Below are positions 17,397 through 37,350 of a stretch of 39,764 bases of DNA, in pieces. A program made the position numbers and the translations under genes. Each line of letters opens with the position of its first letter. Position 1 is the stretch's first letter. This stretch comes from an uncultured bacterium (GTDB lineage: Bacteria; Abyssobacteria; SURF-5): assembly GCA_964607485.1 (NCBI GenBank), contig CAZSKP010000041.1, positions 1 to 39,764 on the forward strand, given 5' to 3'. The notes beneath the pieces were generated by a model, which did no database searches, was not told where the DNA came from, and saw only the letters and a list, made by a program, of their open reading frames with translations.

Positions 17397-18230
17397 TCAC
17401 TTGAAGCCCCTTATTTTATCCGATGTGTCAATCAGCTTCAACACTAAACACTTGGTCGCCCCTCCAGCCTTGATGAATTCGGACATATCGAATTCGTGCA
17501 CGACGTATCCCCTCGATTCGAGAGCCGGCCGCAAGCCCTTAGAGCCGCCCCGCGCCTGGATGTAATGGTTCCCCACGACGACCGCGTTGCACACGAATTG
17601 CTCCGCCTCTTCCCCGCTCACCTCGATCCGGTCGGGGAAGTTCGCCTCGATGACCTCGAGCGCATATGAATCGAACGCCCCCGGATAGTACACGACGCTC
17701 TCCGCGCTCAGCGGACAAAAGCACGTGTCGAGATGATAAAACCTCGGGTCGACGAGCTCGAGCGACACGATGCGCACGCCCAGCAACTCCGCAACCATGG
17801 CATGAGCGTTCACGTCCGACCTGATGAGATAGCCCGCGTAAGCGTTCTCATCGTCCGCGAACAACACGTCGCCTTCGCCCTCGAAGTGGAGGTTGTCCGG
17901 TAACGTGTGGACCGAATAGCCGTTTTCCTTGAACCATGCGTCGTAGTACCGGCTCTCGCCCCTCCGCTCCTCGGCGCGGAAATTGCTCGAAATGAACTTT
18001 TTGTTCATGGCCAGCCCGGCGTTTGCCGTGAACACCATATCGGGCAGTCCGGGAACCGGCTGGATGAGCTTGACATTCAGCTTCAATTCCGTCGAAAGGA
18101 ACCCGTAAAGCGCCTCCCACTGCTCGCGCGCGAGCCGTCGGTCGGCCTGGCGCTCCAGGCTCATCCACGGATTGATCTCGTATTCGATCCCAAAGTGATC
18201 GGCCGGACACATGAAGAAAGTGGATTTCAT
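17397..18230 (-). CDS. amidinotransferase / arginine dihydrolase-like (ArgZ N-terminal domain homolog)
   Basis: YEINPWM, PGLPDMVFTANAG, FEGEGD, FYHLDTCF and EFIKAGGATKC (guanidino-modifying pentein Cys-His-Glu). Confidence 0.85.
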   Translation of the reverse strand: MKSTFFMCPADHFGIEYEINPWMSLERQADRRLAREQWEALYGFLSTELKLNVKLIQPVPGLPDMVFTANAGLAMNKKFISSNFRAEERRGESRYYDAWFKENGYSVHTLPDNLHFEGEGDVLFADDENAYAGYLIRSDVNAHAMVAELLGVRIVSLELVDPRFYHLDTCFCPLSAESVVYYPGAFDSYALEVIEANFPDRIEVSGEEAEQFVCNAVVVGNHYIQARGGSKGLRPALESRGYVVHEFDMSEFIKAGGATKCLVLKLIDTSDKIRGFK

Positions 18231-18251
18231 GGAAATCGGGTTTGCGTCGGC

Positions 18252-19475
18252 TCACGCGGGCGAAATCCTCAGCTCGCCGCAAAGCTCGCGCAGAAAGGAC
18301 TCCGCATCGGTCACGACGCCCAGCGCCTGAAACGAGCCACGGTCGGCCAGCTTGGTCACCGTCGCCGGATTGATATCGACGCACACCGTCCTCACCGTCG
18401 CGGGGAGCAGGTTTCCCACGGCGACCGAATGAAGCGTCGTGGCAAGCATGAGGGTCACGCCGACCCCCTTTATCAATCTTCTCATTCCGCGCTGCGCTTC
18501 TATCACATCGGTGATGACGTCCGGCAGCGGGCCGTCATCGCGTATGGAACCGGCGAGGAGAAAGGGGATGTTGCGCTTGACGCACGCATGCATGATCCCT
18601 CTCGTGAGAACTCCCTGCTCGACGGCCTGCCTGATGCCGCCGCATTTCCTGATGGTGTTGATGGCGCGCATGTGATTCTCGTGTCCGTGTTCCGCGGGTA
18701 TCCCCTTGTCCAGATACACGCCGAGGGAGGTTCCGTACAGGGCGTACTCGATGTCGTGGACGGCCAACGCATTCCCCGCGAAGAGCACATCGACATAACC
18801 GGACTCTATCAGGCGGACGAAATTCGACACCGCGCCCGTGTGCACAATAGCCGGCCCGGCGACGACCAGTATTTTCTGGCTACGATAGCGCGCATCTTGA
18901 AAGAATCGGGTGATGTCCCTCACCACGGCGCCCTTCGGCTTCTCCGTGGATACGGCGCTCGACATGAAGCTGAAAACATCTTCTTTCGAGGGGCGTTCTG
19001 TCGGCGCGACTTTGACCCCACGGTGTCCCACCGCGAGGAGGTCGCCCTCTGAGACTTCGCCGATGGGGACGCAGGCGGCGTGCGTGCGGTCGGCGGAGAC
19101 GCGAATGCCGCAATCCATCTCCGGCCCGGCCACCTCGACCCACCGGCCGTCGAGCCGTATGAACGTCCGCCGGTTTGTCGTCGAGTAGAAGCCGTCGGGA
19201 AACACGCCGTCCTTCTCGACCTTTCTCAGCTCGCAGTCTTTTTCATCAACGAGCGTTGCGCCATGCTGCCGTATTCTCTTGAGCACTTTTTCGAGCGTGG
19301 CCTCGTCTTTCGCCGTGAGCCGTATGCGGGCGTAGGTCGGGTCATCCCTCTTCTTGCCGACGCTCAGGTCCTCGATGGTGAAATCGAGCTGGTGCTTCAC
19401 GATGTCGTCCAGAATCTTCGGGAGGAGAAGCGAGTCGATGATGTGACCGGATATCTCGACGGTTTCGCTGTACAT
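18252..19475 (-). CDS. TIGR00300 family protein (LOR/SDH-like; ornithine cyclodeaminase of ArgZ/AgrE C-terminal type)
   Basis: GHIIDSLLL, PDGFYSTTN, FSFMSSAVSTEK, GNALAVHDIE, LAGSIRDDGPLPD, LHSVAVGN, VTKLADRGS. Confidence 0.9.
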   Translation of the reverse strand: MYSETVEISGHIIDSLLLPKILDDIVKHQLDFTIEDLSVGKKRDDPTYARIRLTAKDEATLEKVLKRIRQHGATLVDEKDCELRKVEKDGVFPDGFYSTTNRRTFIRLDGRWVEVAGPEMDCGIRVSADRTHAACVPIGEVSEGDLLAVGHRGVKVAPTERPSKEDVFSFMSSAVSTEKPKGAVVRDITRFFQDARYRSQKILVVAGPAIVHTGAVSNFVRLIESGYVDVLFAGNALAVHDIEYALYGTSLGVYLDKGIPAEHGHENHMRAINTIRKCGGIRQAVEQGVLTRGIMHACVKRNIPFLLAGSIRDDGPLPDVITDVIEAQRGMRRLIKGVGVTLMLATTLHSVAVGNLLPATVRTVCVDINPATVTKLADRGSFQALGVVTDAESFLRELCGELRISPA

Positions 19476-19478
19476 CGC

Positions 19479-22746: not shown

Positions 22747-23829
22747 TCAGTGTTTCTTGAACGCCTCGCCGTGCTTGAGCTGTTTGAGGCTGGCCTCGAA
22801 ATCGAATCCCGTATAGACGGGGCAGCGCTCGTTGTGGCAGCGGAGGCAGACCTCTTTATCGGGAATCACCAGGCCGTGGCGGAAGCATTCGTCCCTGACG
22901 TCGTGGACGTCCAGTATCTTGGCCTTGGCCATCGTCTCGACGTAGCTGTAGCCCCACCCGTGACACATCTCGCACTGCACGCCTGCCAGGCCTTTGCGCG
23001 TGGGGTCGTCTATCTCGTAGCCGCCGGGCGCATGCAGGCCGGTTGCATGACATTCGAGGCATCTCTCGTCGCGGACGGGGTCGTCGGAGAATTTTTTTGC
23101 CAATTTCGTTTCGAGCACGGAGAAGGCGTTGATGTGCTTCACGATGACCCACGTCATCGCGGATTCGTCGGTCTTCACGTGGCAGAACGTGCATTTCTCC
23201 AGGCCGATGTACTCGCACTTGCTCTCCTTCTTGCCGTGCTTGATCATCTTCACCGCCTCTTCGAAATTGAATCCATCGAAGACAGGGCACTCCTTGTTGT
23301 GGCACTTGCGGCATGTCTGCTCGTTGGGTATCACGAGGCCTCTGCGGGTGCACTCCTTTGTGTCCAATTCGCGCTCTTGCGGCAAGGCGCGGGCCATTTC
23401 GCCGCGGTAGAGCTCGCCGGGCCCGTGGCACATCTCGCACTGCACGCCCTCAAACTCCTCCGCCATGGCCATGCGCAGCACATCCTCCGTCTGGACGGGG
23501 TCGGAAATCGTGCCGGTGATGTGACATTTCAGGCATTTGGGGTCTTCATCGGGGTTGTCCGAATATTTCTTGGCTTCGGGAGTGCGCAGGACAGCGAGGG
23601 CATTGGCGTGCTTGGTGATGGCCCACGTTCTGAGCGAATCGTCGAGGCGAACGTGACAGAAGGCGCACTTCTTCACGCCGACATAGACGCACGCCTCAGC
23701 TTTTTCCTCTTTTTCCGTTTTCTCCGGTTTCTCCTCCTGCGCTGCCTTCTCTTCGGCACAGGCGCTGGTAATAAGAAACAGCAGCGCGAATACCATGCAG
23801 GCGATACCGACCCACTTCTTCCCACGCAT
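22747..23829 (-). CDS. octaheme cytochrome c with two tandem cytochrome c554-like tetraheme domains, probable lipoprotein
   Basis: GGAGG RBS; signal ending ITSA-C; CAFCH, CLKCH, CEMCH, CRKCH | CTFCH, CLECH, CEMCH, CLRCH; Y(V/I)G..kC..CH and GVQCE.CHG motifs. Confidence 0.88.
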   Translation of the reverse strand: MRGKKWVGIACMVFALLFLITSACAEEKAAQEEKPEKTEKEEKAEACVYVGVKKCAFCHVRLDDSLRTWAITKHANALAVLRTPEAKKYSDNPDEDPKCLKCHITGTISDPVQTEDVLRMAMAEEFEGVQCEMCHGPGELYRGEMARALPQERELDTKECTRRGLVIPNEQTCRKCHNKECPVFDGFNFEEAVKMIKHGKKESKCEYIGLEKCTFCHVKTDESAMTWVIVKHINAFSVLETKLAKKFSDDPVRDERCLECHATGLHAPGGYEIDDPTRKGLAGVQCEMCHGWGYSYVETMAKAKILDVHDVRDECFRHGLVIPDKEVCLRCHNERCPVYTGFDFEASLKQLKHGEAFKKH

Positions 23830-23907
23830 TGCCAAGACCTCCCGTCTCAGTCCGCTCGCCCCTCCGGGCCGGGGACCGACCGTTCGGGCAAGCTTCTGTG
23901 TAAGTTT

Positions 23908-24228: not shown

Positions 24229-25455
24229 CTAACCATTAAGCTCCGGTTCGCGCGGAAACAGGTGCAGGTATCGATACGCGAGCGAGAAGACAATCACGCC
24301 ATATCCCACCACCGCCGCAACAATCGACCATTCTTGCCAGGTCGGCGTGTACACCACGAATTTTTCAAAGGGCATCACGGGAATCGCCAGCGTCTGGATG
24401 GTAATGGAAAAGCGATTGATGACAATGCCCGCACACGTGAACAGACAGCCTATCACAAGCCAGAAATCGTTGTCCCGTGCCTTTGGTATCAACAGAATGA
24501 CTGCCGGAACCAGCCCGAAGAGGTAGAATTCGCAGAACAACAGCCACAATCCATACGGCGCCCGGTAGAAGCTCGTAAACCTGAATCCCTTCTCGGGCGC
24601 GGTGAAGTTCGCCCAGTAGATGGTGTCGGCGGCCTTGAGAACCAGGTAAACGCTGAGCAGGATGGCCGACAGCTTCGCGAGCTTGGAGAGGGTGGACCTG
24701 CTGACCAGTCGGCGGCGCGTCAGCTTCTGAGTGGTCCACACGACCAGCGTCGTCAACGCGGGGCCGGAAGCGATGGCCGACAATATGAACAAGAAGAACG
24801 TCCAGGGCCAGATCGCGACGCCGGTGCGATGCGAGAAGGGCCGCGCAAACAGGACGCCGAACATCCCCCCGAGCGAGCCCTGGTGGAAGAATGACAGGAA
24901 TGTGCCCACCAGTGCGAACACAACCATGATGCCGTGCAAATTCTCTCCCACGTATTTCAGGAACGGTATCTCGCGCAGTTTTTTGTTTTCGGCAATCAGA
25001 GGAACAAACTCGATGGTCAACACGAACAGGTAGAGCGTGATGCAGAAGATTACCTCGGTCAGCATCGAATGCACGTTGGCGTGCCAGAAGCTGAAATAGC
25101 CTCGCAGCGGCTGGCCGATGTCAACCGTCAACATGCCGATGGCGCCGCTGTAGCAGATGAACCCGATGACCACTGCCGCGCCGATCAGTTCCTTCAGCGA
25201 TTCGACGCGGAGGACGTAGTACAGGAACCCGCTGAAAAATGCGCCCGCCCCCAGCGCGATGACCGCGAGGTCGACCGTGATCCACAAGCCGAAGATGAAA
25301 TAGTTGTTCATCCCCGTCTGATTCAGCCCCTTGTACAGACACAGGAACGCCCCGTAAAGTCCCCACAGAAGGAGCAGCCCCCAAAAGGACAGCCACAGGA
25401 GGAACTTAGGCGTCGAGCACCTTTTCAGTTCCGGTAACTCGTGTCCCGAACTCAT
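24229..25455 (-). CDS. qrcD: menaquinone reductase integral membrane subunit (NrfD/PsrC family)
   Basis: About 10 TM; GLWITVDLAVIALGAGAFF, DIGQPLR, HSMLTEVIFC, SFFHQGSLGG, YTPTWQEW; last gene of the qrcABCD order. Confidence 0.88.
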   Translation of the reverse strand: MSSGHELPELKRCSTPKFLLWLSFWGLLLLWGLYGAFLCLYKGLNQTGMNNYFIFGLWITVDLAVIALGAGAFFSGFLYYVLRVESLKELIGAAVVIGFICYSGAIGMLTVDIGQPLRGYFSFWHANVHSMLTEVIFCITLYLFVLTIEFVPLIAENKKLREIPFLKYVGENLHGIMVVFALVGTFLSFFHQGSLGGMFGVLFARPFSHRTGVAIWPWTFFLFILSAIASGPALTTLVVWTTQKLTRRRLVSRSTLSKLAKLSAILLSVYLVLKAADTIYWANFTAPEKGFRFTSFYRAPYGLWLLFCEFYLFGLVPAVILLIPKARDNDFWLVIGCLFTCAGIVINRFSITIQTLAIPVMPFEKFVVYTPTWQEWSIVAAVVGYGVIVFSLAYRYLHLFPREPELNG

Positions 25456-25479
25456 GACGTAACTGTCGACTCCTTGCGG

Positions 25480-26256
25480 TTATAAGGAATGCGCCGGGTG
25501 CAATTCCAACGCGTCATTATCCGCCCATCTCCTGATCCAGTCGTGCGAGCTGAGGTAATAGACTTTAGGCTGGGTGTTCAGCTTCTCCAGCAGCCTGAAC
25601 GCCCGCGCGCTCTTGGCGAGGCCGGCCACTTCGTACTCGGCGTCGTTCAGGTCGCCGAAATGCATCGCCTCGACCGGACAGGCCTCCACGCACGCGGGAA
25701 CGTACTCGCCCTTCTCCAAGCGGCTCCGGCCTTGCTTGTGCGCCCTGTTCTTGGCCTTTATGTATCGATGAGAACAAAACGTGCACTTCTCCACCACGCC
25801 GCGCATCCTGGGAGCTACGTCGGGGTTGAGGTATTGCACAGTGTCGGCGGGCCAGACGGGGTCCCACCAGTTGAAACACCGGACCATATAAGGGCAGGCC
25901 GCCATGCAGTAGCGACAGCCGATGCAGCGGGTGTTTATCTGGTCCACGAGCCCCGTGCGCTTGTCGTAGTTGGTGGCGCTGGCGGGACAGACCGAGACGC
26001 AGGGGGTGTGCCGGTCACATTGCATGCAGGGGCGCGGGATGTGGGCCACGCGTATGTTGGGATACTCGGCACCGTTGGTGATCTTGTAAATGCGCAGCCA
26101 CGCGATGTTGCGCGACTTATCGCTTTCGTCGGCCCTGAACGGGACGTTATTCTCCATGTGGCAGGCGACTGCGCAGTTGCCGCAGCCGGTGCACCTGTCC
26201 AGGTCTATTGTCATTCCGTACCGAATGACCGATTGTCGGGGAGAATCCTCACTCAT
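25480..26256 (-). CDS. qrcC: menaquinone reductase iron-sulfur subunit (NrfC/DmsB family)
   Basis: CTGCGNCAVAC, CMQC..PCVSVCP, CIGCRYCMAACP, KCTFC..ACVEACP; PRMRGVVEKC. Confidence 0.88.
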   Translation of the reverse strand: MSEDSPRQSVIRYGMTIDLDRCTGCGNCAVACHMENNVPFRADESDKSRNIAWLRIYKITNGAEYPNIRVAHIPRPCMQCDRHTPCVSVCPASATNYDKRTGLVDQINTRCIGCRYCMAACPYMVRCFNWWDPVWPADTVQYLNPDVAPRMRGVVEKCTFCSHRYIKAKNRAHKQGRSRLEKGEYVPACVEACPVEAMHFGDLNDAEYEVAGLAKSARAFRLLEKLNTQPKVYYLSSHDWIRRWADNDALELHPAHSL

Positions 26257-26263
26257 ACGTTCC

Positions 26264-28657
26264 TCACGCTCTGGTTATTTTGCCGGGAGTCGCCCACCAG
26301 ACGGGCAGTCCGCTGACGGGATCGCTCTTCGCTTCGAGAATCCGGCGCGCATCGACGCCCTTGTCTCGCAGGAACTCGTCGTAGGCGGTGTGGCCGAAGC
26401 CGAGCGGAATCAGCACGACTCCCTCGCGGACGCCTTCAAAAGTGTGCAGCCTCACCCTGACTTTCCCCCGTGGCGACTCCAATATGACGGTGTCCCCTTC
26501 CTGCAGGTTTTGATACAGGGCGGTGATGGGGTTTATGCGAACAAACAGCTCATTCTTCGAGAGCACCCTGTCGCTGAGTTGCTTAATCAAGAACGGCGGT
26601 GTGTCCTTTCCGTCGTCGGCCACGAGGAGCATGTCCTCGGGCATTATCATCAGGTCGAAGCCCTCGCGACTCAACTCCGGCTCGTTGTAATGAGGCATGC
26701 ATTTCACGTCGTCCGTAAAATGGAAAGCGGTCGTGAGCTGCCTGCTGAAGAACTCGAATTTGCCGCCGGGGTTTTTCAGCACTTCCTCAGGGCTTCCGCG
26801 CCCGAGGTCGGGGTCGAACCAGCAGTTGTTCTCCAGGAGTTCTCTCCACATCGAAGAGAACGAAGGGTACTTCGCGGGCCTGGAAACAGCCGAGATCCGA
26901 CCTTTTTCTTTCACGGCGACGGATTCGGGAGAGGCTATCATTCCTCTGCCGGCCTGATGCAGGCCCTTCGCCCTCATCTCCAGCACCGTCTGCATGCCGG
27001 TCCAGGGGAACGACTCGGCTATCGTCCCGCCCAGTCTTTTCGCGAGAGCAATCAGAATATCTCCGGCATTTTTTGTCTGATACGACGGATTTATAAGCGG
27101 ACGGTTCACGTTATAAACCGGATACGGCAGCTCCGGCGCCGCAAACTGGTCGTCCCACCTTTCGACAGAAGTAGGCAAAGGGAGCACCAGGTTCGCCCCG
27201 GCCGCGCTCTCGTCCATGCAGCACGAGAAGCTGACAATGAACGGAACCTTCTCGAAGATTTCCTCGGCCGTCTCACGCTCGGGCAACGCGTAATAAGGGT
27301 TCGCTTCGTGAATGAAGAGCACCTTTATGCCGTCCGCCTTCAGGTTACCGGGGAGAGATGGGGAGAAGGGGTACGTGGCGCTGCCCGCTTCGTCGAGCCG
27401 CTCGACCGCATACCCGCGCGCGGCCTCTTCGTCCATCACAACCGGCGGAAGAGGCGCGACGGGCGGCTGGCGCTTCACGCCGACTCCGCCCGGCCTGTTG
27501 ATATTCCCCGCGAGAGCGTTGAGGCTGTGGACGGCCATCAGCTCATACAAGTTCGAGAAGAGGTCGCCGCCGCCCCGCCCGGCGACGGCCAGCGCGGGCC
27601 TGGTCGTCGCAAACTTTTGCGCGAGGCTCTCGATCTCTTTCGCCGGCACCGTCGTCATCTGTTCGACGGACTGGGGCGAGTAGCTCGCGAGCACCATCGA
27701 TTTGAACCCCTTGTGCGTTTCCCCGTCGGGGCCTTTCCAATCCTCAAATCCGAAGCAGTGCTTATCCACGAACTCCTCGTCGTACAGCCTGTCCCGTATC
27801 AGCACATGGGCCAGCCCGAGTGCGAGCGCGGCTTCGGCGCCCGGCTTGATGGGGACCCACTGCGAGGCCTTCGAGGCCGTGGTCGAGAGATTCGAGTCAA
27901 CCTGCACGATCTCCACCCGGTCGGAATCCGATTCGGCGAGCGACGAGGCGTAAGCTCGGTACATCCTGCCCCACGTGCCCCATCCCTCCAGCAGGGCGCA
28001 TCCGAAGCTGAGGATGAAACGGGCGTTTTCGAAATCGTAGGCCATGTCGCCATCGACGCCCTGCATGAGCTTGAGTGTCATGTTTCGAGCGTCCCTGCCC
28101 GAGCTCATTCTCACGAAATTTCGCGAGCCGACTGCGTGGAGGAATCGCTCGAACAGCCGGTTCACCGTTCTGTCGCAGCCGTTGGTGATACACGCGAGGG
28201 CATGAGACTCGTTGGCGGCGCGAATCTGCTCGATCTCACGCGCGACCTCTTCGATCGCCTCCTCCCATGAGAGCGGCTCCCACTTGGGGTCATCGTGCGT
28301 GCCCGTTCGTTTCAGCGGTTGTGTGATGCGAGAGGGGCCATACACCATCTGGAGTTCGGCCGTGCCCCGGGGACACAGCAGGCCCCGGTTGACCGGGTGG
28401 TGTTCGTCGCCGTAGATTCGGACCAATCGGTGGCCCAGCTTGCGCACCTTGGTTCCGCACCCGCCGTCGCACATGCCGCAGACACTCTTCTCCAGAGAAG
28501 GCTCACCGTGGGGCGGAACGGGAACCCACGGCCAGTTCTGTGTCCACCTGGCCAGGTCCCTGATCAGATGCCAGGGCGCGGGCGAAGACATGAACCCGAG
28601 CGTGCCCCCTCCCGCGAAGGCCAACGCCTTGAGAAATAGCCTGCGATCAACTTTCAT
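26264..28657 (-). CDS. qrcB: menaquinone reductase molybdopterin-oxidoreductase-like subunit
   Basis: Tat signal DRRLFLK; SPAPW..WTQNWPW; CGMCDGGC...CPRG Fe-S motif; DMSO-reductase-family fold motifs; lies between the multiheme and Fe-S genes. Confidence 0.87.
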   Translation of the reverse strand: MKVDRRLFLKALAFAGGGTLGFMSSPAPWHLIRDLARWTQNWPWVPVPPHGEPSLEKSVCGMCDGGCGTKVRKLGHRLVRIYGDEHHPVNRGLLCPRGTAELQMVYGPSRITQPLKRTGTHDDPKWEPLSWEEAIEEVAREIEQIRAANESHALACITNGCDRTVNRLFERFLHAVGSRNFVRMSSGRDARNMTLKLMQGVDGDMAYDFENARFILSFGCALLEGWGTWGRMYRAYASSLAESDSDRVEIVQVDSNLSTTASKASQWVPIKPGAEAALALGLAHVLIRDRLYDEEFVDKHCFGFEDWKGPDGETHKGFKSMVLASYSPQSVEQMTTVPAKEIESLAQKFATTRPALAVAGRGGGDLFSNLYELMAVHSLNALAGNINRPGGVGVKRQPPVAPLPPVVMDEEAARGYAVERLDEAGSATYPFSPSLPGNLKADGIKVLFIHEANPYYALPERETAEEIFEKVPFIVSFSCCMDESAAGANLVLPLPTSVERWDDQFAAPELPYPVYNVNRPLINPSYQTKNAGDILIALAKRLGGTIAESFPWTGMQTVLEMRAKGLHQAGRGMIASPESVAVKEKGRISAVSRPAKYPSFSSMWRELLENNCWFDPDLGRGSPEEVLKNPGGKFEFFSRQLTTAFHFTDDVKCMPHYNEPELSREGFDLMIMPEDMLLVADDGKDTPPFLIKQLSDRVLSKNELFVRINPITALYQNLQEGDTVILESPRGKVRVRLHTFEGVREGVVLIPLGFGHTAYDEFLRDKGVDARRILEAKSDPVSGLPVWWATPGKITRA

Positions 28658-28699
28658 CCGCGACCGTTCCTTCAACTCCCACCGGCATCGACCGGCCCG

Positions 28700-29335
28700 C
28701 TATTTGTGACATATGAAACACGCCGTGCTTACTCCCCTGGCTCGATGGCACTTGGCGCATTCGTCCATTCCCATCGTGCCCCACACGTTTTCCTCTTTCC
28801 TTCCAACGAGCGCGCTCATGTTCATGGATGCCTCGGAATCGTAAACGACGTAACTGTATTTCGTGATACGGTTGATCAGGTATTTGGTCGGATGCCTGGA
28901 GAGCCCCTGGGGCCCGTGGCAGGTCTCGCAGGCGAGCCCCGCCTCTTTGACATGCGATGAATGTGAGAACGAAACGCACTGTGGCTGCCTGAAGTAGAGG
29001 CCCCACTTCACTTCCCTGTTCTTCTGTACGTATTCCGTTACAAATTGTCTTTCCGTCGGGGATTCTCCCAGCACTTCGCTGTGACAGTTCGCACAGACCT
29101 CAAGGGTCGGAATTCCCGACCAGCTTCCGTCCGCATAGAAGAAGTGACAGGTCTCGCACGAGATGCCGACATCCTTCCCGTGCTTCACATGGCTGAAATC
29201 GACCGGCTGCTCATGCTTGGCGTACATCAGCGCCGGCACAAAGTACCTTCCCACAAAGTGGAAAACCACAAATCCGGCCAGAAACACGGCGAGCGTGATC
29301 GATGAGTTTTTCCTGGTTTGCGAAACTTCACTCAT
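28700..29335 (-). CDS. qrcA: menaquinone reductase multiheme cytochrome c subunit (pentaheme)
   Basis: N-terminal TM; QPVDFSH; CETCH, CANCH, CETCH, CAKCH, CFICH. Confidence 0.87.
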   Translation of the reverse strand: MSEVSQTRKNSSITLAVFLAGFVVFHFVGRYFVPALMYAKHEQPVDFSHVKHGKDVGISCETCHFFYADGSWSGIPTLEVCANCHSEVLGESPTERQFVTEYVQKNREVKWGLYFRQPQCVSFSHSSHVKEAGLACETCHGPQGLSRHPTKYLINRITKYSYVVYDSEASMNMSALVGRKEENVWGTMGMDECAKCHRARGVSTACFICHK

Positions 29336-29565: not shown

Positions 29566-30960
29566 TCAATCGCGTCTTGTTTCTCGGCCCGGCGGTCCGG
29601 CTTTTCCCGCCTCCTCCAAATCGGTCGGCTTCTTTCCGCCTCTCTTCAGCAATGAAAACAGTGTAGGTTTCTTCCGAAAACGTGTCGCGAAAACCATAAT
29701 GCCGCCGGCGACGATACCCAGGCAGACCAGGCCGCCGAGCGACCAAAGCGCAGCGGTCCTGATGCGACGCAGATTCTCAAAATCAAGGTCTCCCGTATCG
29801 ACATGAATCTTGGCCTGAAGTAGCTCGGCGGTAGGATTGGGGTGACAGTTCGGCTTGCCGCACGTTTCCCGCAAATGCGAAGGGTTTATTGAAGATTCCG
29901 GGTCACTCGGCGGGAGAATATCGTGATAGCCGTGACAGCTCACGCACGTGGCCACCGATACGATTCCGAGGTCTTTGCCCATGCCATGGTCGCTCTTTTT
30001 GAACGTGGACACTTTGTTGGTCAGGATATTGTACTTGCTCATCTTGGTCACGTCGTCGTGGCAGCTTGCGCAGGTGTATGTGACATGCAGGGCCGAGACG
30101 CTCGATTCGGGATTCCACGGAGCCGCTATCTTGTGCTCGCCGTGACAGTCGGCGCATGTGGGAGCATCCACTATGCCTTCCTTGAACGCCCTGCCGTGAA
30201 AGCTTCTGCTGTAAGCGTGGTATTCGTCCAGATGACATCTGCCGCACGTGCGGGGCTGATGCGGTTTCAGGTCGGCCTCGCCGTTGCCCTGAATGTCGTG
30301 CACGCCATGGCAATCGGTGCACACGGCCGCCAGCGTCACCAGCCCATCTTTGAAGAGCGCCTTTCCATGCACGCTCTGCTCGTACTCCCTGTACGGCTGT
30401 TCGGCGTGGATGTTATGTTTCAGGACCATCTGCATGTTATCGTGGCAGACGGCGCAGGTGCGCGGGATATTCGCGCGATAAATAGTGGATTCCGGGTCGG
30501 ACGCGGGCCTGATATTATGCTTGCCGTGACATGTCGGGCAGGTGGCGACGTCGGTATCGCCCCTCTCGAGCGAGGCCCGGCCGTGGACGCTGGTCTTGTA
30601 CTGCTGCATGGGGGTGAAGTTCGGGGCGCCGTCGGGATTGCCCTTGTAATGGCAGGACGTGCAGTTGACATCCTTGAGCGTTTTCAGATGAGGAACTTTC
30701 TCATTGGGCGTCGGAGTTTCACTGGCGTCCACATGACAGTCGGTGCACTTGAGAGAGGCGTGTATGGACTGGGAGAAAACCTTCGGGTCGACATAGATCA
30801 GTTGGCTGCGGGCCGTCGCTTCGTCGCCGTGACAGGCGAGGCACGCGTCGTTACCCTGCTGTGTCGCATCCTGGGCCCAGCCCGGAGCGCCGCCGGTCGC
30901 GAGCAAGGCCGCCGCAATTCCAAACGCCACGCAGGTCAGTTTTCCGGTCCTATCTTTCAT
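29566..30960 (-). CDS. multiheme cytochrome c (10 CXXCH + 1 CX4CH) with a C-terminal membrane anchor
   Basis: Signal peptide; repeated Y..SVHG/C..CHG.H.I/P.TC..CH units; final CGKPNCH; C-terminal hydrophobic helix followed by RFRKK. Confidence 0.88.
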   Translation of the reverse strand: MKDRTGKLTCVAFGIAAALLATGGAPGWAQDATQQGNDACLACHGDEATARSQLIYVDPKVFSQSIHASLKCTDCHVDASETPTPNEKVPHLKTLKDVNCTSCHYKGNPDGAPNFTPMQQYKTSVHGRASLERGDTDVATCPTCHGKHNIRPASDPESTIYRANIPRTCAVCHDNMQMVLKHNIHAEQPYREYEQSVHGKALFKDGLVTLAAVCTDCHGVHDIQGNGEADLKPHQPRTCGRCHLDEYHAYSRSFHGRAFKEGIVDAPTCADCHGEHKIAAPWNPESSVSALHVTYTCASCHDDVTKMSKYNILTNKVSTFKKSDHGMGKDLGIVSVATCVSCHGYHDILPPSDPESSINPSHLRETCGKPNCHPNPTAELLQAKIHVDTGDLDFENLRRIRTAALWSLGGLVCLGIVAGGIMVFATRFRKKPTLFSLLKRGGKKPTDLEEAGKAGPPGRETRRD

Positions 30961-30980
30961 GAGTCGTAACAAGCCGGCGC

Positions 30981-32639
30981 CTAAGCCCCGGCTCCCTTTT
31001 CGGCTTCCGTTTTCGATTCCCCGACTACCCCTCCGAGCGACGCGGGAAGCAGGATGGAGAAGACCGTCCCTTCGTTCAGCACGCTCTTAACAGAAATCGA
31101 GCCGCCGTGTCTTTCGATAATCGAGAGCGCCACGGCCAGCCCCAGGCCAATCCCGCTGTCGTCTTCCTTCGTGGTGAAGAACGGCTCGAAGATGTGCCGA
31201 GCCGTTTCATCGTCCATCCCGACGCCGTTGTCCTGAACAGAAATTTCGACCGCCTTCGCGGAGGGCAGATATTTGCAGGCGATCTTCAGGATACCCTCGT
31301 CCACTATGGCGTCGCATCCATTTATCAGTATCGCGAGCAGCACCTGTTTGATTTTTTGCGAATCGCAATTTATCGCGGGTATGCCGTCGCCGAGTTGCAG
31401 TTGCAGTTCTATGCCCCTGAGGGTAATCAGGTGGTCTATCAGCAGCGTGGATTCGCGGACGATATTGCAGATGTCGTTAGGCGAAAGGACGAGGTCGGAC
31501 TGGCGCGAGAACTGGAGCAGGTTCTTCACAATCTCGCCGCATCGCAGGGCTTCGCTCATCATCATGTTAATGATTTCTTTGCTCTTCCCGTAGCCGTTCT
31601 CGGAGAACGTGTTGTTGTCCATTCGCTTCATCAGAAGCTTCGCGTAGGCGACGATGCCGGCCAGCGGATTGTTGAGCTCGTGCGCGACAACAGCCGCGAG
31701 CCGCCCGACCGAGGCCATCTTCTCCGCCTGCAGGATCAGCTCGTTCGCCTTCTGCAGTTCCTGCGTCTTGTCCGCCACACGGTCTTCGAGGCTTTTCGTC
31801 CACTCGGTGATTTCATCCTGGGCCTTCTTGAGGTCGCGCGTCATGCTGTTGAAGGAGCTGGCGAGAAGCCCCAGCTCATCCGAAGACTTCGTATCGATGA
31901 CGTAATCCATGTCGCCCATCGCGATGCGCTTCGTGCCGGTTATGAGTTTCTTGACCGGGCCGTAGATCATCATCCAGACGAATCCCGCCGACACAATCGA
32001 AACGGCAATCATGATGACGAGCAGATTCATGACGATGTTTCTCTGATATTCGGCTATGCTTTCGTCCACCTTGGCGAGCGAGAGGTTGATGTCGAACACG
32101 CCCAGAACTTTCTTGGATTCCGGATGCACGTGGCAGGGGGCCGTGTAACAGTCCGGCTCGTTTTCGATCGGTTGAATGAGGCCGAGCAAGCGCTCGCCGC
32201 GTCCGATCCTGAATATCCTGGCCCGGTCGGGACGGGAGAGTTTCGTCAGCGGCTGTTCGCGCGTATGGCAGGCGTAGCATGCTTCGGCCTTCTTATCTAC
32301 GTACGTGTTCAACTCGTGTTCGTCGGTCGAAAATGTGATCTTGCCCTCTTTGTTGAGGATTCGTATCCTTCTTATGCCCGGCTCGTCGCCCAACTGGTTT
32401 ATCATGTGGTAGAGCTCGTCCCGGCGGTTCTTGAGCATCGCCAGTCTGGTGCTTCTCTTCACGATGTCGCCCACTCCTTGAGCGCTGGTCAACACCAGTC
32501 CTTCGAGGTGTTTGCGGCTGTGTTCGACGTTGATGAAACCGAACACGCCGAAGATGACCACCACGCTGCCCACCACGCAGATGATAAGCTTGATGGTGAG
32601 GCTGCCCGATATGCTGAACATTCTCTTGACGAGATTCAT
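30981..32639 (-). CDS. HAMP-domain sensor histidine kinase with a periplasmic heme-c-binding sensor domain
   Basis: 2 TM; CYACH and CYTAPCH in the periplasmic loop; HAMP; AHELNNPL H-box; DNGVGM, FEPFFTTK, GLGL. Confidence 0.92.
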   Translation of the reverse strand: MNLVKRMFSISGSLTIKLIICVVGSVVVIFGVFGFINVEHSRKHLEGLVLTSAQGVGDIVKRSTRLAMLKNRRDELYHMINQLGDEPGIRRIRILNKEGKITFSTDEHELNTYVDKKAEACYACHTREQPLTKLSRPDRARIFRIGRGERLLGLIQPIENEPDCYTAPCHVHPESKKVLGVFDINLSLAKVDESIAEYQRNIVMNLLVIMIAVSIVSAGFVWMMIYGPVKKLITGTKRIAMGDMDYVIDTKSSDELGLLASSFNSMTRDLKKAQDEITEWTKSLEDRVADKTQELQKANELILQAEKMASVGRLAAVVAHELNNPLAGIVAYAKLLMKRMDNNTFSENGYGKSKEIINMMMSEALRCGEIVKNLLQFSRQSDLVLSPNDICNIVRESTLLIDHLITLRGIELQLQLGDGIPAINCDSQKIKQVLLAILINGCDAIVDEGILKIACKYLPSAKAVEISVQDNGVGMDDETARHIFEPFFTTKEDDSGIGLGLAVALSIIERHGGSISVKSVLNEGTVFSILLPASLGGVVGESKTEAEKGAGA

Positions 32640-32870: not shown

Positions 32871-34073
32871 TTATCGAGTCAACAGTTCCCGGCTGCCCGT
32901 CCCGACATCGTGTTGAGGAACAAGATACCTGAGAGCTTCGGCGGACTCTTCCCTTTCTTTCTCCTCAGGAAACACGGGCAGATACTTAACGGCGGCTCCG
33001 AACAGCGCGAAGCCCCCGGCCACGAGAAACAGCGTGGCCCCTATCTCCATCCACGACGGGAAATACTCGACTCCGGACGAACGCATCATCCCGGTTATGC
33101 TCACGTTCAGCCTGTTCAGCACAAACCCCAGAACGACCATGACGGACGCGATGAAGAGGCCGCCCTGGCTCTCACGCAATCTCCTGATGCTCAGAAGCGC
33201 AAACGGCGCCAGAACGCCCAGCCCCATCTCGAGCAGAAACATCTTGCTCTCATGGCTCCCGTCGAACAACAGCCCCAGCGCCTGCCTGTTGTACAAGTCC
33301 TTCACTTTCAGCACGAGGTAAACCGCCAATATGACCAGAATGACCCGGCCGATGCTGCGCAGAAGGTCCAGCTCGAGCCTCCTCTTGAACGCGCGCCGGC
33401 TCAGGTATGATTCGAATATGACCATCGAGAAGCCCGTCGCAACGGCCGACGTGAAAAACATCAGCGGCAGAATCGGCGTGTACCACAGCGGATGCAGCCG
33501 GCCGGGAGCTATCAGGAACACCGTGCCGAGCGAGGACTGATGAAGCGTGGACAGTATGAATCCGACTATCACAAGCGGGATCGTGATCGACTTGATGATT
33601 CTTACCGGCCTCTCCCACTTCAGGCGCTTGAACAGCATCGGACTGAACTCGAGCGATAGTACGGTTGTGTAAAGCGTCACGCACCACGCCACCTCGAACA
33701 TGACCGAATGCGGGTTCCACATGATGATCGGATGCCAGATGCGGTATGGCCGGCCTATGTCGAATATCAGGCCCGCGTTCACCATCAGATAGCCCAGAAA
33801 CGCGCTCAGCACCGCCGCGGGGAGAATCGGCTTGTATTTCTTGATGTTGAACACGTGCACAATCAGCGTGATGGTGAACCCGCCGGCCGCCAGTCCGACT
33901 CCGCACAGCACGTCGAAGCCGACCCACAGGCCCCACGGGACTTTATCGCTCAGGGCGGTGGACGCGCCCAATCCCTTGAAGAACCTGATGTAGCTGATAT
34001 ACAGCCCCATCGCGAAGATTATCCCGAATACCACCCTCCAGAACGTGATACGAGGCATCCATTTCCGGTTCAT
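32871..34073 (-). CDS. HybB/HmcC-like NrfD-family integral membrane subunit
   Basis: PWGLWVGFDVLCGVGLAAGGF, DIGRPYRIWHP, SVMFEVAWC, STLHQSSLG, YFPSWME; start at MNRKW. Confidence 0.88.
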   Translation of the reverse strand: MNRKWMPRITFWRVVFGIIFAMGLYISYIRFFKGLGASTALSDKVPWGLWVGFDVLCGVGLAAGGFTITLIVHVFNIKKYKPILPAAVLSAFLGYLMVNAGLIFDIGRPYRIWHPIIMWNPHSVMFEVAWCVTLYTTVLSLEFSPMLFKRLKWERPVRIIKSITIPLVIVGFILSTLHQSSLGTVFLIAPGRLHPLWYTPILPLMFFTSAVATGFSMVIFESYLSRRAFKRRLELDLLRSIGRVILVILAVYLVLKVKDLYNRQALGLLFDGSHESKMFLLEMGLGVLAPFALLSIRRLRESQGGLFIASVMVVLGFVLNRLNVSITGMMRSSGVEYFPSWMEIGATLFLVAGGFALFGAAVKYLPVFPEEKEREESAEALRYLVPQHDVGTGSRELLTR

Positions 34074-34125
34074 TTTGCTTGCCTTTCCACCTTTCACAGG
34101 CCCGTTCAACGACCAATCCCGCCGG

Positions 34126-34932
34126 TTAATTCTTCTTGAAACGGTCGAGGAAGCGCCGCAGACTTTTCTGAGATTCGATTCCGTCCATGCGGTCGCGCTC
34201 GGCCTGTTTGATTCGTTCATCCTCGAGCGTCATGCGGCGGTTGATTATCCAGGCGACCCCGCCGAGGAGCGTCCCGCCCACAAGCACGAAGTCGGGAATC
34301 TTCGAGAGCACCGACCACGTGAGAAGCGGAAGGGGCTTCTCGATGAGGTCCGACTTGAAGCCGATCTGCTCGAACGGCACGGCCGCAAGGTAGAGCATCG
34401 ATGTGCCCCCCACCTCGCGCTCGCCGAAGATGTGGTCCTGATAGTCGCCGGGGTTCTCCGCGATTCTCCTTCGCGCCTCGGCCAGGAGCTCGCTCCTCTC
34501 GCCGAACGTCGTGGCGCCTGTGGGGCAGGCCTCGGCGCACGCCGGCTGCTCTCCGACAAGCACGCGGTCGTAACAGAACCAGCATTTTCTCACGCGTGGC
34601 AGCGCGCTGGCCCATTCATACGTGGGCATCTGAAACGGGCAGGCCTGCATACAGTATCTGCAACCGATGCATTTATCTTCGTTATAGACCACCGGCCCTT
34701 CTTCCAGTTTCTTCAGCGCTCCGACGGGGCAGACGGAGGCGCAGGCCGGCTCGACGCAGTGCATGCACATCTTGCGCACAAAGTAGTCGCCTCGTTCGAA
34801 TACCTTGGTGAACTTGCAAGCGGAGAGGTCAGACTCGTCGCATTCGGGCAGGTTGTTCTTCTCACGACACGCATCCTCGCATGAGAGACACCCTATGCAC
34901 CATGTCGTGTCTATCAGCATTCCCTTCCTCAT
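34126..34932 (-). CDS. HybA/FdnH-like 4x[4Fe-4S] protein with a C-terminal TM anchor
   Basis: CIGCLSCEDAC, CMHCVEPACASVCP, CIGCRYCMQACP, KCWFC..ACAEACP; GEREVGGTS; C-terminal TM; no Tat leader. Confidence 0.9.
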   Translation of the reverse strand: MRKGMLIDTTWCIGCLSCEDACREKNNLPECDESDLSACKFTKVFERGDYFVRKMCMHCVEPACASVCPVGALKKLEEGPVVYNEDKCIGCRYCMQACPFQMPTYEWASALPRVRKCWFCYDRVLVGEQPACAEACPTGATTFGERSELLAEARRRIAENPGDYQDHIFGEREVGGTSMLYLAAVPFEQIGFKSDLIEKPLPLLTWSVLSKIPDFVLVGGTLLGGVAWIINRRMTLEDERIKQAERDRMDGIESQKSLRRFLDRFKKN

Positions 34933-34954
34933 CTAGCCTATCCTCCAATCGGAT

Positions 34955-35668
34955 CTAGGAGTTTTCCAGGAATCGTTCCCTGAACAGTTTCCACGCCTCA
35001 TCGTCAAGAGTCTCGAGCAGGTTGTCGAGCGCAAGAGCGCCGTCCTGCATGGTGACGCCGACCGTCTGAAGCCTCGGCATCTGCGCCGCCACCAGTTCCT
35101 GCAGCCGGAACAGTTCGTCGTATATCCATCTGACCGCCTCTTCGGCGACCTTCAAAACCTTCAGGTTGGCCGAAAGGTTGCTCGGACGCACCTTGCAGAC
35201 CCAGCCGGACGAGTCCAGGTCGCGACGCCGCGACAGCGTGTCGTTCACGGAGCTTACGATGCCGTCGATCGGTGCCACGAACTCGGCCACCCGGCTTCCC
35301 TGCCGGACCGCAAACAGCTTTTCCCCCTGGCGCACGCTCCGGCCCATCGCCGGCAGCTCGACCTCGTCAACCCTTCCTATCGCCTTTCGCGCAAAGGCAT
35401 CCAGCCCGATCTCGGCCTCGCCGGATTCCGCTATGGCGGCCCAGCTGTGGCCTCGATGCAGGAACGCATTCTTCGGGGGCGCAATCCCGAAATCTCTCAG
35501 GCAGTCAACCATCCGTGCGTAGTTTGCCGGAAGGTGCGATGCCTCCCCAATCGGATCGGGCATGAAGAATCCGTACACCTCCCCGCCTCTCCTGTGCTCG
35601 ATAAACTGAATCGCTATCTCCACTGCCAGGAACGCCAGTATTATGCCGACGATAGCCAAGGGAACCAT
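34955..35668 (-). CDS. membrane-anchored GcvH-like (glycine cleavage H fold) protein 3
   Basis: GGAGAGG RBS; N-terminal TM; HRGHSWA, IGLDAFA, APIDGIVSSVN, GWV; C-terminal MQDGA. Confidence 0.8.
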   Translation of the reverse strand: MVPLAIVGIILAFLAVEIAIQFIEHRRGGEVYGFFMPDPIGEASHLPANYARMVDCLRDFGIAPPKNAFLHRGHSWAAIAESGEAEIGLDAFARKAIGRVDEVELPAMGRSVRQGEKLFAVRQGSRVAEFVAPIDGIVSSVNDTLSRRRDLDSSGWVCKVRPSNLSANLKVLKVAEEAVRWIYDELFRLQELVAAQMPRLQTVGVTMQDGALALDNLLETLDDEAWKLFRERFLENS

Positions 35669-35705
35669 CCTTACCTCTCCTTTCCAGTACAACGGGGGTG
35701 TGTAT

Positions 35706-36440
35706 TCATCTGCCGGATTTTTCCGGTTCGGCCGTGAAAGCGCGAATGACGAGCTCGTGCCAGTCCGCAGCTTCCATGCGGTCGGCCAGACCCTCTTCGG
35801 GCAGGCCGCCGTCCTGAAACACCATGCCCAGCTCACCGCTGAACATGGACCTGAGCTGCATCGCGGATTCTTCCATCCACTTCGTGGCAGCGGAACCGCG
35901 AAGAAGGTTGCGGAGATTTCGCCCCAGGTCCTTCGGCCTGACCATCACGAGCCAGCCGCGGCCGTAGGGTTCCTCCGAGAGAAGCTCGGGCGCGCCTGCC
36001 GCCTGCTCGTTCACGGCCACAACCTCTCCGTCCAGGGGAAAAGCCATGTCGAGGATTTTCCCCTTTCGGCTGAGGGTCCAGCCTTTCGCTCCCTGCTTGA
36101 CGTTCTCGCCCACGCTCGGCAGCGTCACCGAGGTCGGCCGGCCGAACAGCTTGCTGGCAAAGTCGTCGATTCCGACCAGCGCCGTGCCCGACTCCTGCAC
36201 CGCCACCCACGCGTGGCCGGGATGATAATGGAGTGAACCCGGCAGAGAGTAGCCCTCCACTCGGGGGATGGCCGGGGCGGAGGCTTCCAGCATCGGTCCT
36301 TCCGGAGCCGGCCTCAGAAGAATTCTTGCCCTCACGAATTCGGCGAGGCTGCTCGAACCGACCAGCACCGCGAGCGTCAGGCCCGTGAGAATAAGGAACG
36401 CCAGCCCCAGCATTGCGAATGGTAAAACAATGGGAATCAT
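35706..36440 (-). CDS. membrane-anchored GcvH-like protein 2
   Basis: N-terminal TM; YHPGHAWV, VGIDDFA, PLDGEVVAVN, PYGRGWL; C-terminal FQDGG. Confidence 0.85.
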   Translation of the reverse strand: MIPIVLPFAMLGLAFLILTGLTLAVLVGSSSLAEFVRARILLRPAPEGPMLEASAPAIPRVEGYSLPGSLHYHPGHAWVAVQESGTALVGIDDFASKLFGRPTSVTLPSVGENVKQGAKGWTLSRKGKILDMAFPLDGEVVAVNEQAAGAPELLSEEPYGRGWLVMVRPKDLGRNLRNLLRGSAATKWMEESAMQLRSMFSGELGMVFQDGGLPEEGLADRMEAADWHELVIRAFTAEPEKSGR

Positions 36441-36494
36441 TTCGCCCTCTCCTTATTGGGGTGCCTTACAGCCAGGACATTGGATTTACCATTC

Positions 36495-37241
36495 TCACTG
36501 TTTCACCGGTTCGACCATGAAGATGCGACTCGCGAGCTCGCGCCAGTCGGCAGCTTTCAACTGGTCGGCCAGACCCTCTTCCGGCAGGCCGCCGTCTTGA
36601 AACACCGGGCCCAGCCTGCCGCTGAACATGGACCTGAGCTCCGTCGCGGATTCTTCCATCCACTTCGAGGCGACGGAACCGCGAAGGAGATTGCGGAGAT
36701 TTCGCTTCAGGTCCTTCGTCTTGACCATCACGAGCCAGCCTCGGCCATACGGCTCCTTCGAGAGAAGCTCGGGGGTGTGTGCCGCCAGCTCGTTCACCGC
36801 AATCACCTCGCCGTCCAACGGGAACACCATGTCGAGGTCTTTCCCGCCACGACTGAGAGTCCATCCCTTTTCGCCCTGTCTGAACCGCTCGCCCAGTCTC
36901 GGCAGTGCGACCGAGCTGGGTTGACCGAACAGTTTGGCGGTGAAGTCGTCGACCCCGATGAGGGCCGTGCCCGACTCCTGCACCGCCACCCACGCATGAC
37001 CCTGATGGTAATGCAGCGACTTCGGCAGGGCGTATCCTTCGACGCGGGCCGTGGCGTTGCCAAGCTCGGGCAGGATTGCAACCGTGGGGGCGCGGGCCAC
37101 CGTCGGGTCGGCCAGCGCGGCGCTTCCTAGAATCGGCCCCTCCACCGCCGCCTTCGAGAGAAACCTCTTCTTGATGAACTCCGAAAGGTAGCCGATTCCA
37201 ATGAATACGGCGAACGTTAAAACTGCCAGGATGAGGGGCAT
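36495..37241 (-). CDS. membrane-anchored GcvH-like protein 1
   Basis: AGGAGG RBS; N-terminal TM; YHQGHAWV, IGVDDF, PLDGEVIAVN, PYGRGWL; C-terminal FQDGG. Confidence 0.85.
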   Translation of the reverse strand: MPLILAVLTFAVFIGIGYLSEFIKKRFLSKAAVEGPILGSAALADPTVARAPTVAILPELGNATARVEGYALPKSLHYHQGHAWVAVQESGTALIGVDDFTAKLFGQPSSVALPRLGERFRQGEKGWTLSRGGKDLDMVFPLDGEVIAVNELAAHTPELLSKEPYGRGWLVMVKTKDLKRNLRNLLRGSVASKWMEESATELRSMFSGRLGPVFQDGGLPEEGLADQLKAADWRELASRIFMVEPVKQ

Positions 37242-37335
37242 GCCCAATTCCCTCCTTTGTCCTTTGCCGACCGCTCTCGGTTGCGGACCCTCGCCATTTT
37301 CTCCTCCTTGCACGTAATTCCGCCGCCTATATTAG

Positions 37336-37350
37336 GCAATTTACCTGCCA
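37336..37350 (-). promoter_or_regulatory. sigma54 (-24/-12) promoter of the gcvH-like/hybAB-like operon
   Basis: Minus strand TGGCAGGTAAATTGC matches TGGCACNNNNNTTGC spacing (GG-N10-GC), 95 nt upstream of the start codon. Confidence 0.7.

Follow-up and report, generated by a model that had tools for sequence, protein, structure and literature searches.

Membrane-anchored, lysine-less H-fold proteins beside an Hmc-type Fe-S/NrfD quinone module: candidate adaptors to a haem-sensor two-component system

Described bearers of the H-protein fold include GcvH and LbpA (background in PMC10332631), the latter with a conserved lysine and two cysteines near its termini (10.64898/2026.10.01.755906). Among quinone-reactive proteins, ten-helix NrfD subunits pair with cofactor-less QrcB or ActB or with the cytochromes HmcA or DsrJ (Duarte et al., PMC6303296), and modules of a C-tailed ferredoxin, a HybB-like oxidase and a cytochrome c occur independently of hydrogenases (bioRxiv 10.1101/2023.11.02.564894, section 11, which also gives the hmc operon order as B-C-D). 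Here we describe an operon in which three H-fold genes, H1-H3, precede an Fe-S/NrfD gene pair. It lies in a window (the whole stretch of DNA analysed) of 39,764 nucleotides on contig CAZSKP010000041.1 of an uncultured Abyssobacteria bacterium (assembly GCA_964607485.1), and consists of the following genes:

36495..37241, minus strand: H1, membrane-anchored lysine-less H-fold protein, class I, 248 amino acids (PF01597, E 1e-18)
35706..36440, minus strand: H2, membrane-anchored lysine-less H-fold protein, class I, 244 amino acids, 65% identity to H1 (PF01597, E 1e-21)
34955..35668, minus strand: H3, membrane-anchored lysine-less H-fold protein, class II, 237 amino acids, grouping with helix-receiver-H fusions (PF01597, E 5e-15)
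34126..34932, minus strand: HmcB/HybA-like 4x[4Fe-4S] protein with a C-terminal anchor and no Tat signal (HmcB 256 bits, cut-off 420)
32871..34073, minus strand: HmcC/HybB-like NrfD (PF03916) quinone subunit (HmcC 324 bits, cut-off 550)

The reading we favour, with a probability of roughly 45%, is that H1-H3 act as cofactor-free cytoplasmic adaptors that would link an Hmc-type menaquinone module to its cognate two-component system.

Each H gene is preceded by a ribosome-binding site, and the intergenic gaps from H1 through H2, H3 and the Fe-S gene to the NrfD gene are 54, 37, 22 and 52 nt. The N terminus of all three proteins is a single hydrophobic helix (Kyte-Doolittle 2.3-2.7) with basic residues behind it and none ahead of it, and they carry the tail motifs FQDGG (H1, H2) and MQDGA (H3). 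An AlphaFold2 model of H2 (pLDDT 89, pTM 0.78) superposes on GcvH at 1.1-1.4 Å, with a separate comparison giving Z 20.3 and an rmsd of 1.3 over 131 aligned residues; beyond the shared fold, the model has a helix at its N terminus and a tail, likewise helical, in which the loop around QDGG is of low confidence. A sequence-only reading of this DNA had recognized three consecutive anchored H-fold genes with an (F/M)QDG tail, directly upstream of the 4x[4Fe-4S] and NrfD genes with gaps of 22-54 nt; the family matches, model, helices, tails and measured gaps bear it out on all these points. The proteins share the barrel-sandwich fold of GcvH, LbpA and GcvH-L (rmsd 1.1-2.2 Å to solved GcvH and GcvH-L chains) but differ from them in the membrane anchor, the helical tail of about 50 residues with its QDGG motif and the lack of gcv or shdr genes nearby. 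Curated profiles place them outside the named families: H1-H3 reach 48-86 bits with the GcvH profiles TIGR00527 and NF002270 (cut-off 116-117), and the H-fold proteins score 26-32 bits with the GcvH-like TIGR03077 (cut-off 144). The catalogued GcvH-like family NF045810 (GcvH_rel_desulf), itself distinct from GcvH, matches weakly at 22-33 bits (cut-off 150), and its model of 167 positions lacks the anchor and tail of the H1-H3 family.

In gap-free alignments to solved GcvH chains, the lipoyl-lysine column of the canonical ESVK hairpin is Gly in H1 (SRGG), Gly in H2 (SRKG) and Ser in H3 (RQGS), exactly as the earlier reading had placed these residues. It had also pointed to a Lys one residue off in two of the paralogs, which we find at +1 in H1 and at both -1 and +1 in H2, with none in the hairpin of H3; the column itself being Gly/Gly/Ser, no neighbouring Lys falls into it. 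Across 403 family domains, Lys occupies the column in only 17 and E-x-x-K is retained in two, while the Glu at -3 has been lost, persisting at a weighted frequency of about 9%. H1-H3 differ from LbpA in having no lipoyl Lys, and H1 and H2 contain no Cys at all. All four PF01597 matches in the source genome (97.5% complete) are lysine-less; gcvP (PF02347) was not found there, gcvT not having been searched for genome-wide, and neither shdr nor lipS/slpl genes were found among the 32 open reading frames scanned in the window, no genome-wide search having been made. The genome does encode lipA and one LplA/LipB/BirA-family gene, so the argument for non-lipoylation rests on sequence and not on absent machinery.

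Could H1-H3 nevertheless remain lipoyl or other acyl carriers, modified on a neighbouring Lys? The presence of lipA and the LplA/LipB/BirA-family gene, the +1 Lys in 53 of 108 close homologues and the E-x-x-K kept by two soluble relatives speak for this possibility. We consider it very improbable: the H3 hairpin has no Lys, +1 is Arg in 40 of the 108 homologues, the -3 Glu is lost, and 4 of 5 other cassette genomes encode a separate high-scoring GcvH elsewhere. Furthermore, moving the Lys of an E2 lipoyl domain by one residue abolishes lipoylation (PMC6270654), a result that, carried over by inference to the H-fold, would argue in the same direction. Judged from the alignments, the loss of lipoylation is probably a trait of the H-fold family. 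Two anchor-less relatives (L075:968-1984 and L082:9085-10011) keep the hairpin E-x-x-K and are possibly still lipoylatable intermediates.

The gene pair behind H3 belongs to a familiar type of redox module. The Fe-S subunit retains 16 invariant Cys, and the NrfD subunit has D54, Y95, D105, E127, Y135, E142 and H178 spaced like the quinone-site and proton-path residues D70, Y110, D120, E142, Y150, E157 and H199 of QrcD; the mapping relies on this spacing and on the window's own QrcD, the D. vulgaris protein not having been aligned directly. The earlier description of the pair as HybA/HybB-like holds as far as its NrfC/NrfD type is concerned, but HybA and HybB come second (205 and 298 bits, like HmcB and HmcC below cut-off). 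NrfD residue 127, the equivalent of QrcD E142, is Glu in 9/9 loci with a Tat-less Fe-S protein and Leu in 31/33 Tat-bearing loci, a possible difference between the subtypes in their quinone sites. The Tat signal is missing here, in 6/6 relatives and in the Acidobacteria inspected, and present in most other homologues; an overlooked upstream signal was rejected, as an in-frame TAG directly precedes the ATG. The C-tail of the Fe-S subunit resembles exported forms, and no carrier partner was found. A complex prediction of H1, NrfD and the Fe-S protein (42-row alignments) scored 0.00 twice, with controls that did not fold, and is no evidence for or against contact.

The remaining features needed to place the module are, in the direction of transcription:

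37336..37350, minus strand: sigma-54-type -24/-12 promoter motif, 95 nt upstream of the start of H1
30981..32639, minus strand: sensor histidine kinase (CxxCH and CxxxxCH haem motifs on the periplasmic side; HAMP, HisKA and HATPase)
29566..30972, minus strand: membrane-anchored periplasmic cytochrome c with 10 CxxCH motifs, likely redox partner
24229..29335, minus strand: qrcABCD (context), after the H operon in 3/6 informative family genomes
22747..23835, minus strand: c554-type cytochrome with 8 CxxCH motifs (context)

Among the 32 open reading frames scanned in the window there is no gcvP/T/L, no lipoate ligase, no sHdr gene and no catalytic subunit of a hydrogenase or formate dehydrogenase, in agreement with the sequence-only reading, which had left unmentioned a Mo-bisPGD-family QrcB (NF041783, 456.7 bits, cut-off 440) 4 kb downstream, inside qrcABCD. 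That reading stressed the lack of a catalytic subunit. It is expected for an HmcC-type NrfD, because the ten-helix group normally pairs with cytochromes or cofactor-less subunits (PMC6303296), and a 10-haem cytochrome is encoded downstream. An NiFe large subunit (PF00374) was not found in the source genome, and the 82 longest of 202 neighbour representatives (at least 150 amino acids, NCBIfam scan at E 1e-60) yielded neither a hydrogenase nor a formate dehydrogenase subunit; one QrcB, one HdrA and unrelated housekeeping genes were all that appeared. The partners in relatives are all of cytochrome type: 10-haem, 4-haem and mono-haem proteins, a trihaem-NrfD fusion, a NapC-like protein and Rieske/cytochrome b. 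The module would be a menaquinone-cytochrome c conduit.

The conserved residues of the H domain could also serve a purpose of their own. H73, H76, D92 and D210-G211-G212 are 91-97% conserved in the 403-domain set, and of these H73, D92 and the tail are not found in GcvH; co-evolution analysis of the same domains recovered core contacts, with weak couplings, near noise, between the last helix and residues 111-133. The domain might thus be a cytoplasmic docking or ligand site replacing HmcE/HmcF, whose family-specific His-x-x-His, Asp and QDGG residues either hold a metal or metabolite or attract a redox enzyme of the cytoplasm, so that the module serves as the outlet for a further donor. This would fit the lack of hmcE/F beside the operon and the existence of a fusion protein in which three H domains are joined with an FAD-linked oxidase and a CCG iron-sulfur domain (P0110, 1391 amino acids). 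Yet the scan of 82 of the 202 neighbour representatives showed no conserved cytoplasmic enzyme, and the anchored H proteins have no cofactor motif for electron transfer, making such a site improbable in our view.

How firmly, then, is the anchored H protein tied to this module? At least part of the H array recurs in 6 of 10 other genomes of the phylum, in each case ahead of the Fe-S/NrfD pair. In a scan of species genomes, 557 of 602 candidate stretches were confirmed and the best 80 examined; their titles name Bacteroidota, Calditrichaceae, Ignavibacteria, Syntrophales, other deltaproteobacteria and Planctomycetota as well as Gemmatimonadota, Eisenbacteria, Krumholzibacteria, Latescibacterota and Acidobacteria. 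With neighbours labelled by purpose-built profiles that were spot-checked on examples, the Fe-S/NrfD pair lies within 10 kb in 45 of these 80 loci, 40 of them with at least two H-fold genes. These paired loci also hold a haem kinase (33), an archaemetzincin (27), a soluble Cys-rich H protein (19), a multihaem cytochrome (16) or receiver-H fusions (5), many of the contigs being short.

Two unselected samples, which contain kin genomes so that their counts are not independent, sharpen this picture. Among 71 genomes of an Acidobacteria class (70 drawn plus the seed), the H protein and the NrfD orthologue (at least 54% identity) co-occur in the same 14 and adjoin in 13/13 non-seed genomes; one genome has just a 45% NrfD paralogue. 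The kinase sensor is present in 13 of the 14, the fourteenth (G059) having an adjacent kinase without CxxCH, and 56 genomes have none of these genes. The notion drawn from this sample that H follows the module independently of the kinase is weakened by that adjacent kinase and by extra H genes next to kinases in G043 and G034. The association is looser among 61 genomes of a second phylum, of which 13 gave an H match, 18 an NrfD match and 16 a kinase-sensor match. A full-length anchored H occurs in six, beside this NrfD type in 6/6 and beside the kinase too in 5/6; seven have anchor-less H matches only, and 12 bear the NrfD without an anchored H. The anchored H protein is therefore tied to one NrfD subfamily and more loosely to the kinase, and the conserved NrfC/NrfD-type linkage for which the sequence-only reading proposed a neighbourhood survey exists (co-occurrence in 14 of 71 genomes; 6/6 anchored H proteins).

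The neighbourhood extends further than the five genes. Of 44 homologues of the kinase sensor, 43 have the CxxCH and 41 the CxxxxCH motif. The sensor matches no Pfam family at E 0.01, PF11845 (sCache_heme) included, and the Atlas neighbours give no more than Cache-like leads. It resembles sCache_heme sensors in its CxxCH within the periplasmic sensor of a kinase; the accessible passages on those sensors (10.64898/2026.02.01.703092) do not contain 'GcvH', 'glycine cleavage' or 'NrfD'. The 10-haem cytochrome follows the kinase in 5/5 relatives with enough contig. After the cytochrome, three relatives encode a sigma-54 activator (a gene labelled REC in the loci, its identity set on examples) and an archaemetzincin, whose orthologues here (81% and 75%) lie on contig C5, the activator at 38497-39843. 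The unit first seen as H genes plus Fe-S and NrfD genes stands, but the conserved unit also includes a two-component system and a metalloprotease. The motif upstream of H1 is of the sigma-54 type (GG-N10-GC). The pattern GGCA-N6-TTGC precedes the first H gene in 6/6 relatives, and thus in 7/7 family loci including the window, against a genome background of 0.009 per 330 nt; a scan for sigma-70 promoters and terminators gave chance levels.

A closer look at the three H proteins reveals that they are not alike. H3 is only 31-32% identical to H1 and H2, which belong to a clade holding forms encoded right after the NrfD gene; H3 falls into a clade with helix-receiver-H proteins (a quick tree of 147 rows and a careful tree of 37 rows, supports 93/88 and 85/96). 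A single local triplication was rejected by the approximately unbiased (AU) test at p-AU 0.0005 (37 selected rows, with the group named after the first tree was seen). H1 and H2 are, on these trees, duplicates of one old class and H3 is a member of another, so that the triad of paralogs first reported is indeed three H genes, now explained by two old classes and one duplication. Within the source genome H1 and H2 are sisters (96/90), possibly through gene conversion, while in relatives first and second copies tend to group by position. P0107 is a tandem two-H anchored protein whose folded model (pTM 0.55) has no defined packing between the domains and says nothing about H-H pairing.

Class I has a possible link to HmcD. 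In 19 of 42 members the anchor matches the HmcD model (NF045712; best E 5.8e-6, all under the 34-bit cut-off), and relatives show the gene order B-C-D of the hmc operon with the HmcD-like helix after the NrfD gene. The anchors of H1-H3 themselves have lost this signature: that they are HmcD is not detectable, as they score no better than control helices against an HmcD-type profile. The HmcD likeness and gene order in relatives would also fit a role in which the H proteins are structural or assembly subunits only: the anchor would pack on NrfD like HmcD, and the H domain would act as a chaperone or stabilizing cap that may assist maturation of the Tat-less Fe-S subunit, with no part in signalling and the two-component genes controlling transcription only. 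In line with this, anchored H follows the NrfD module even where no haem kinase was found, and across 41 paired loci (few independent lineages) the HmcD-type N-terminal extension occurs with a Tat-bearing Fe-S protein and is absent with a Tat-less one. What it leaves unexplained are the receiver-H fusions, the soluble Cys-rich H protein beside the kinase and the up to five H genes per locus, and we regard it as unlikely.

The fusions of class II point elsewhere. In five loci a receiver domain precedes the H domain in a gene directly upstream of the Fe-S gene, at the place of H3; the L053 protein, checked in full, has a hydrophobic helix and the phospho-acceptor Asp. Two other fusions (P0132 and P0173) place a signal-peptide cytochrome c before the anchor helix and the H domain after it. 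Because basic residues follow the anchor, and in view of the cytochrome-helix-H and receiver-H fusions, the H domain would face the cytoplasm, opposite the NrfD quinone site and the side expected for the Fe-S domain, and it is therefore no likely stand-in for a periplasmic catalytic subunit.

Another fusion lies apart from the operon: on contig C34 of the source genome (L001:9579-11912), dsrMKJOP ends with a homologous haem-motif kinase and a kinase-like gene of atypical form, behind which a receiver domain is fused to a lysine-less H-fold (C34:11130-11912), a layout shared by six relatives (L044-L049) and thus by 7/7 family loci examined. A TGA in the H-fold match there was considered as selenocysteine and rejected as a normal stop. 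With no HmcBC pair beside it, this layout would suit H proteins that are accessories of the two-component system only, forming a membrane scaffold for kinase, receivers and archaemetzincin without touching the quinone module and co-transcribed because the system regulates the module. Some H proteins also adjoin a kinase on other contigs (L157, L158, G119). However, anchored H adjoins the NrfD gene far more regularly than the kinase, also where no haem kinase was found, and a pure scaffold seems distinctly unlikely. The choice between the adaptor model and these readings, the docking site included, comes from gene context and fusions.

In the adaptor model, the operon would be transcribed by sigma-54 and its Fe-S and NrfD subunits would form an Hmc-type menaquinone oxidoreductase, exchanging electrons with periplasmic multihaem cytochromes and not with an enzyme of its own. 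H1-H3 would be single-pass accessory subunits without lipoate, in which the cytoplasm-facing H-fold and its conserved QDGG tail offer a protein-binding surface. Class I (H1, H2) may take the place of HmcD, and class II (H3) may be the form that bears a receiver domain in other phyla. Through physical contact, the H proteins would connect the quinone module with the cognate pair of haem-sensor kinase and sigma-54 activator: phosphorylated receiver-H proteins might dock on the module, or the module might tune the kinase. The sequence-only reading had proposed an H-fold repurposed as membrane subunit, adaptor or regulator; a membrane-anchored family, non-lipoylated by its sequence and with NrfC/NrfD-type linkage, is what we find, the choice of role being our inference. 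A more far-reaching version, in our estimation somewhat unlikely, would have the lipoyl-carrier fold reused without cofactor as a modular signalling domain, whose anchored, soluble Cys-rich and receiver-fused forms pair and link the redox state of an electrogenic conduit to the haem-sensing two-component system, with gating by phosphorylation, feedback on the sigma-54 promoter and reset by archaemetzincin.

Several observations weigh against the coupling proposed here, for which all support comes from genomic context. The H gene stands alone within 10 kb in 35 of the 80 loci, mostly in Terriglobales; a separate system was rejected for the genomes tested, 5/5 of which carry an NrfD-kinase cluster elsewhere. 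Five Terriglobales genomes hold a second H/Fe-S/NrfD cluster without a haem kinase, the anchored-H/NrfD module of G114 has none nearby, and 7 of the 16 kinase-sensor genomes in the 61-genome sample have no H match at threshold. Because such modules and such kinase genomes exist, H and kinase are separable. The Tat-less Fe-S subunit, with no export partner identified, leaves assembly on the periplasmic side unaccounted for, and the HmcD matches of class I stay below cut-off, with the anchors of H1-H3 no better than controls. Finally, outside the family the sigma-54 motif appears in only 6/37 (0.3 expected) and 4/18 (0.2 expected) loci, which makes it enriched but not general.

The identification of the family has consequences beyond this operon. 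In databases, 1150 cluster representatives (E <=1e-30; true GcvH may be included) carry the name 'glycine cleavage H protein', so that both glycine cleavage and the use of lipoate are annotated too often in genomes of anaerobes. If H1-H3 are adaptors, a cofactor-carrier fold has turned into a signalling or docking domain, which would give a handle on the function of HmcD-type subunits and on post-translational regulation of Hmc-type modules; archaemetzincin proteases gain a concrete candidate context. Should the modular signalling domain hold true as well, about ten phyla of anaerobes would have a new class of signalling domain and, with it, a regulated respiratory complex that is new as well.

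The source genome has two qrcABCD operons (window 24229-29335 and L003:6942-12079 on contig C26; QrcD 80%, QrcB 58% identical), and the window's QrcB keeps the N-terminal four-Cys motif. A second Hmc-like operon (L002:6898-11914, contig C39) contains a CCG protein and an NrfD-cytochrome fusion and no H gene, and its Tat-less Fe-S subunit is 50% identical to the window's. dsrMKJOP is present in the genome, where no dsrA above cut-off was found, possibly owing to an assembly gap. Further along the window, positions 15849-17363 encode a NapC/NirT-type cytochrome of 504 amino acids, with a Pfam pattern matching that of a 499-amino-acid gene after NrfD in L147-L149; at L147:1416-9417 the H/Fe-S/NrfD module runs on into a NapC-like cytochrome, a Rieske protein, cytochrome b and a 9-haem cytochrome. 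Positions 17397-22463 hold putA and then split argZ-like genes (ornithine cyclodeaminase, arginine dihydrolase), an arginine-to-glutamate route.

Finally, we would like to set the locus beside known systems. An Atlas search of the H family returned only clusters named glycine cleavage H-protein, and no description of an H-fold/NrfD cassette was found in the literature covered, which lay outside subscription journals and supplements. Hydrogenase-2 (HybOABC) differs in that neither HybO nor HybC is encoded in the window and the genome gave no match to PF00374; where a cassette-bearing genome does have a true hybOABC operon (L139), its HybA bears a Tat signal and no H gene accompanies it. The stand-alone modules of bioRxiv 10.1101/2023.11.02.564894 are closer, with an Fe-S/NrfD pair beside c-type cytochromes and a signal-less variant; that variant sits behind a Tat-bearing FeFe hydrogenase, of which there is none here, and the section describing the modules says nothing of H-fold proteins, nor does it report flanking genes that are conserved. 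Closest is Hmc of Desulfovibrio (HmcABCDEF), whose C-tailed 4x[4Fe-4S] protein and ten-helix-group NrfD are the best NCBIfam matches and which likewise has a multihaem cytochrome partner in place of an enzyme. Unlike Hmc, the window has a 10-haem cytochrome instead of the 16-haem HmcA and no hmcE or hmcF, an H-fold domain is attached to the small-helix subunit, the Tat signal is missing in this subtype, HmcB and HmcC scores are below cut-off, and the cassette has its own haem kinase, sigma-54 activator and archaemetzincin. An H-fold family and a role that are apparently undescribed thus stand on a redox core of a familiar type.

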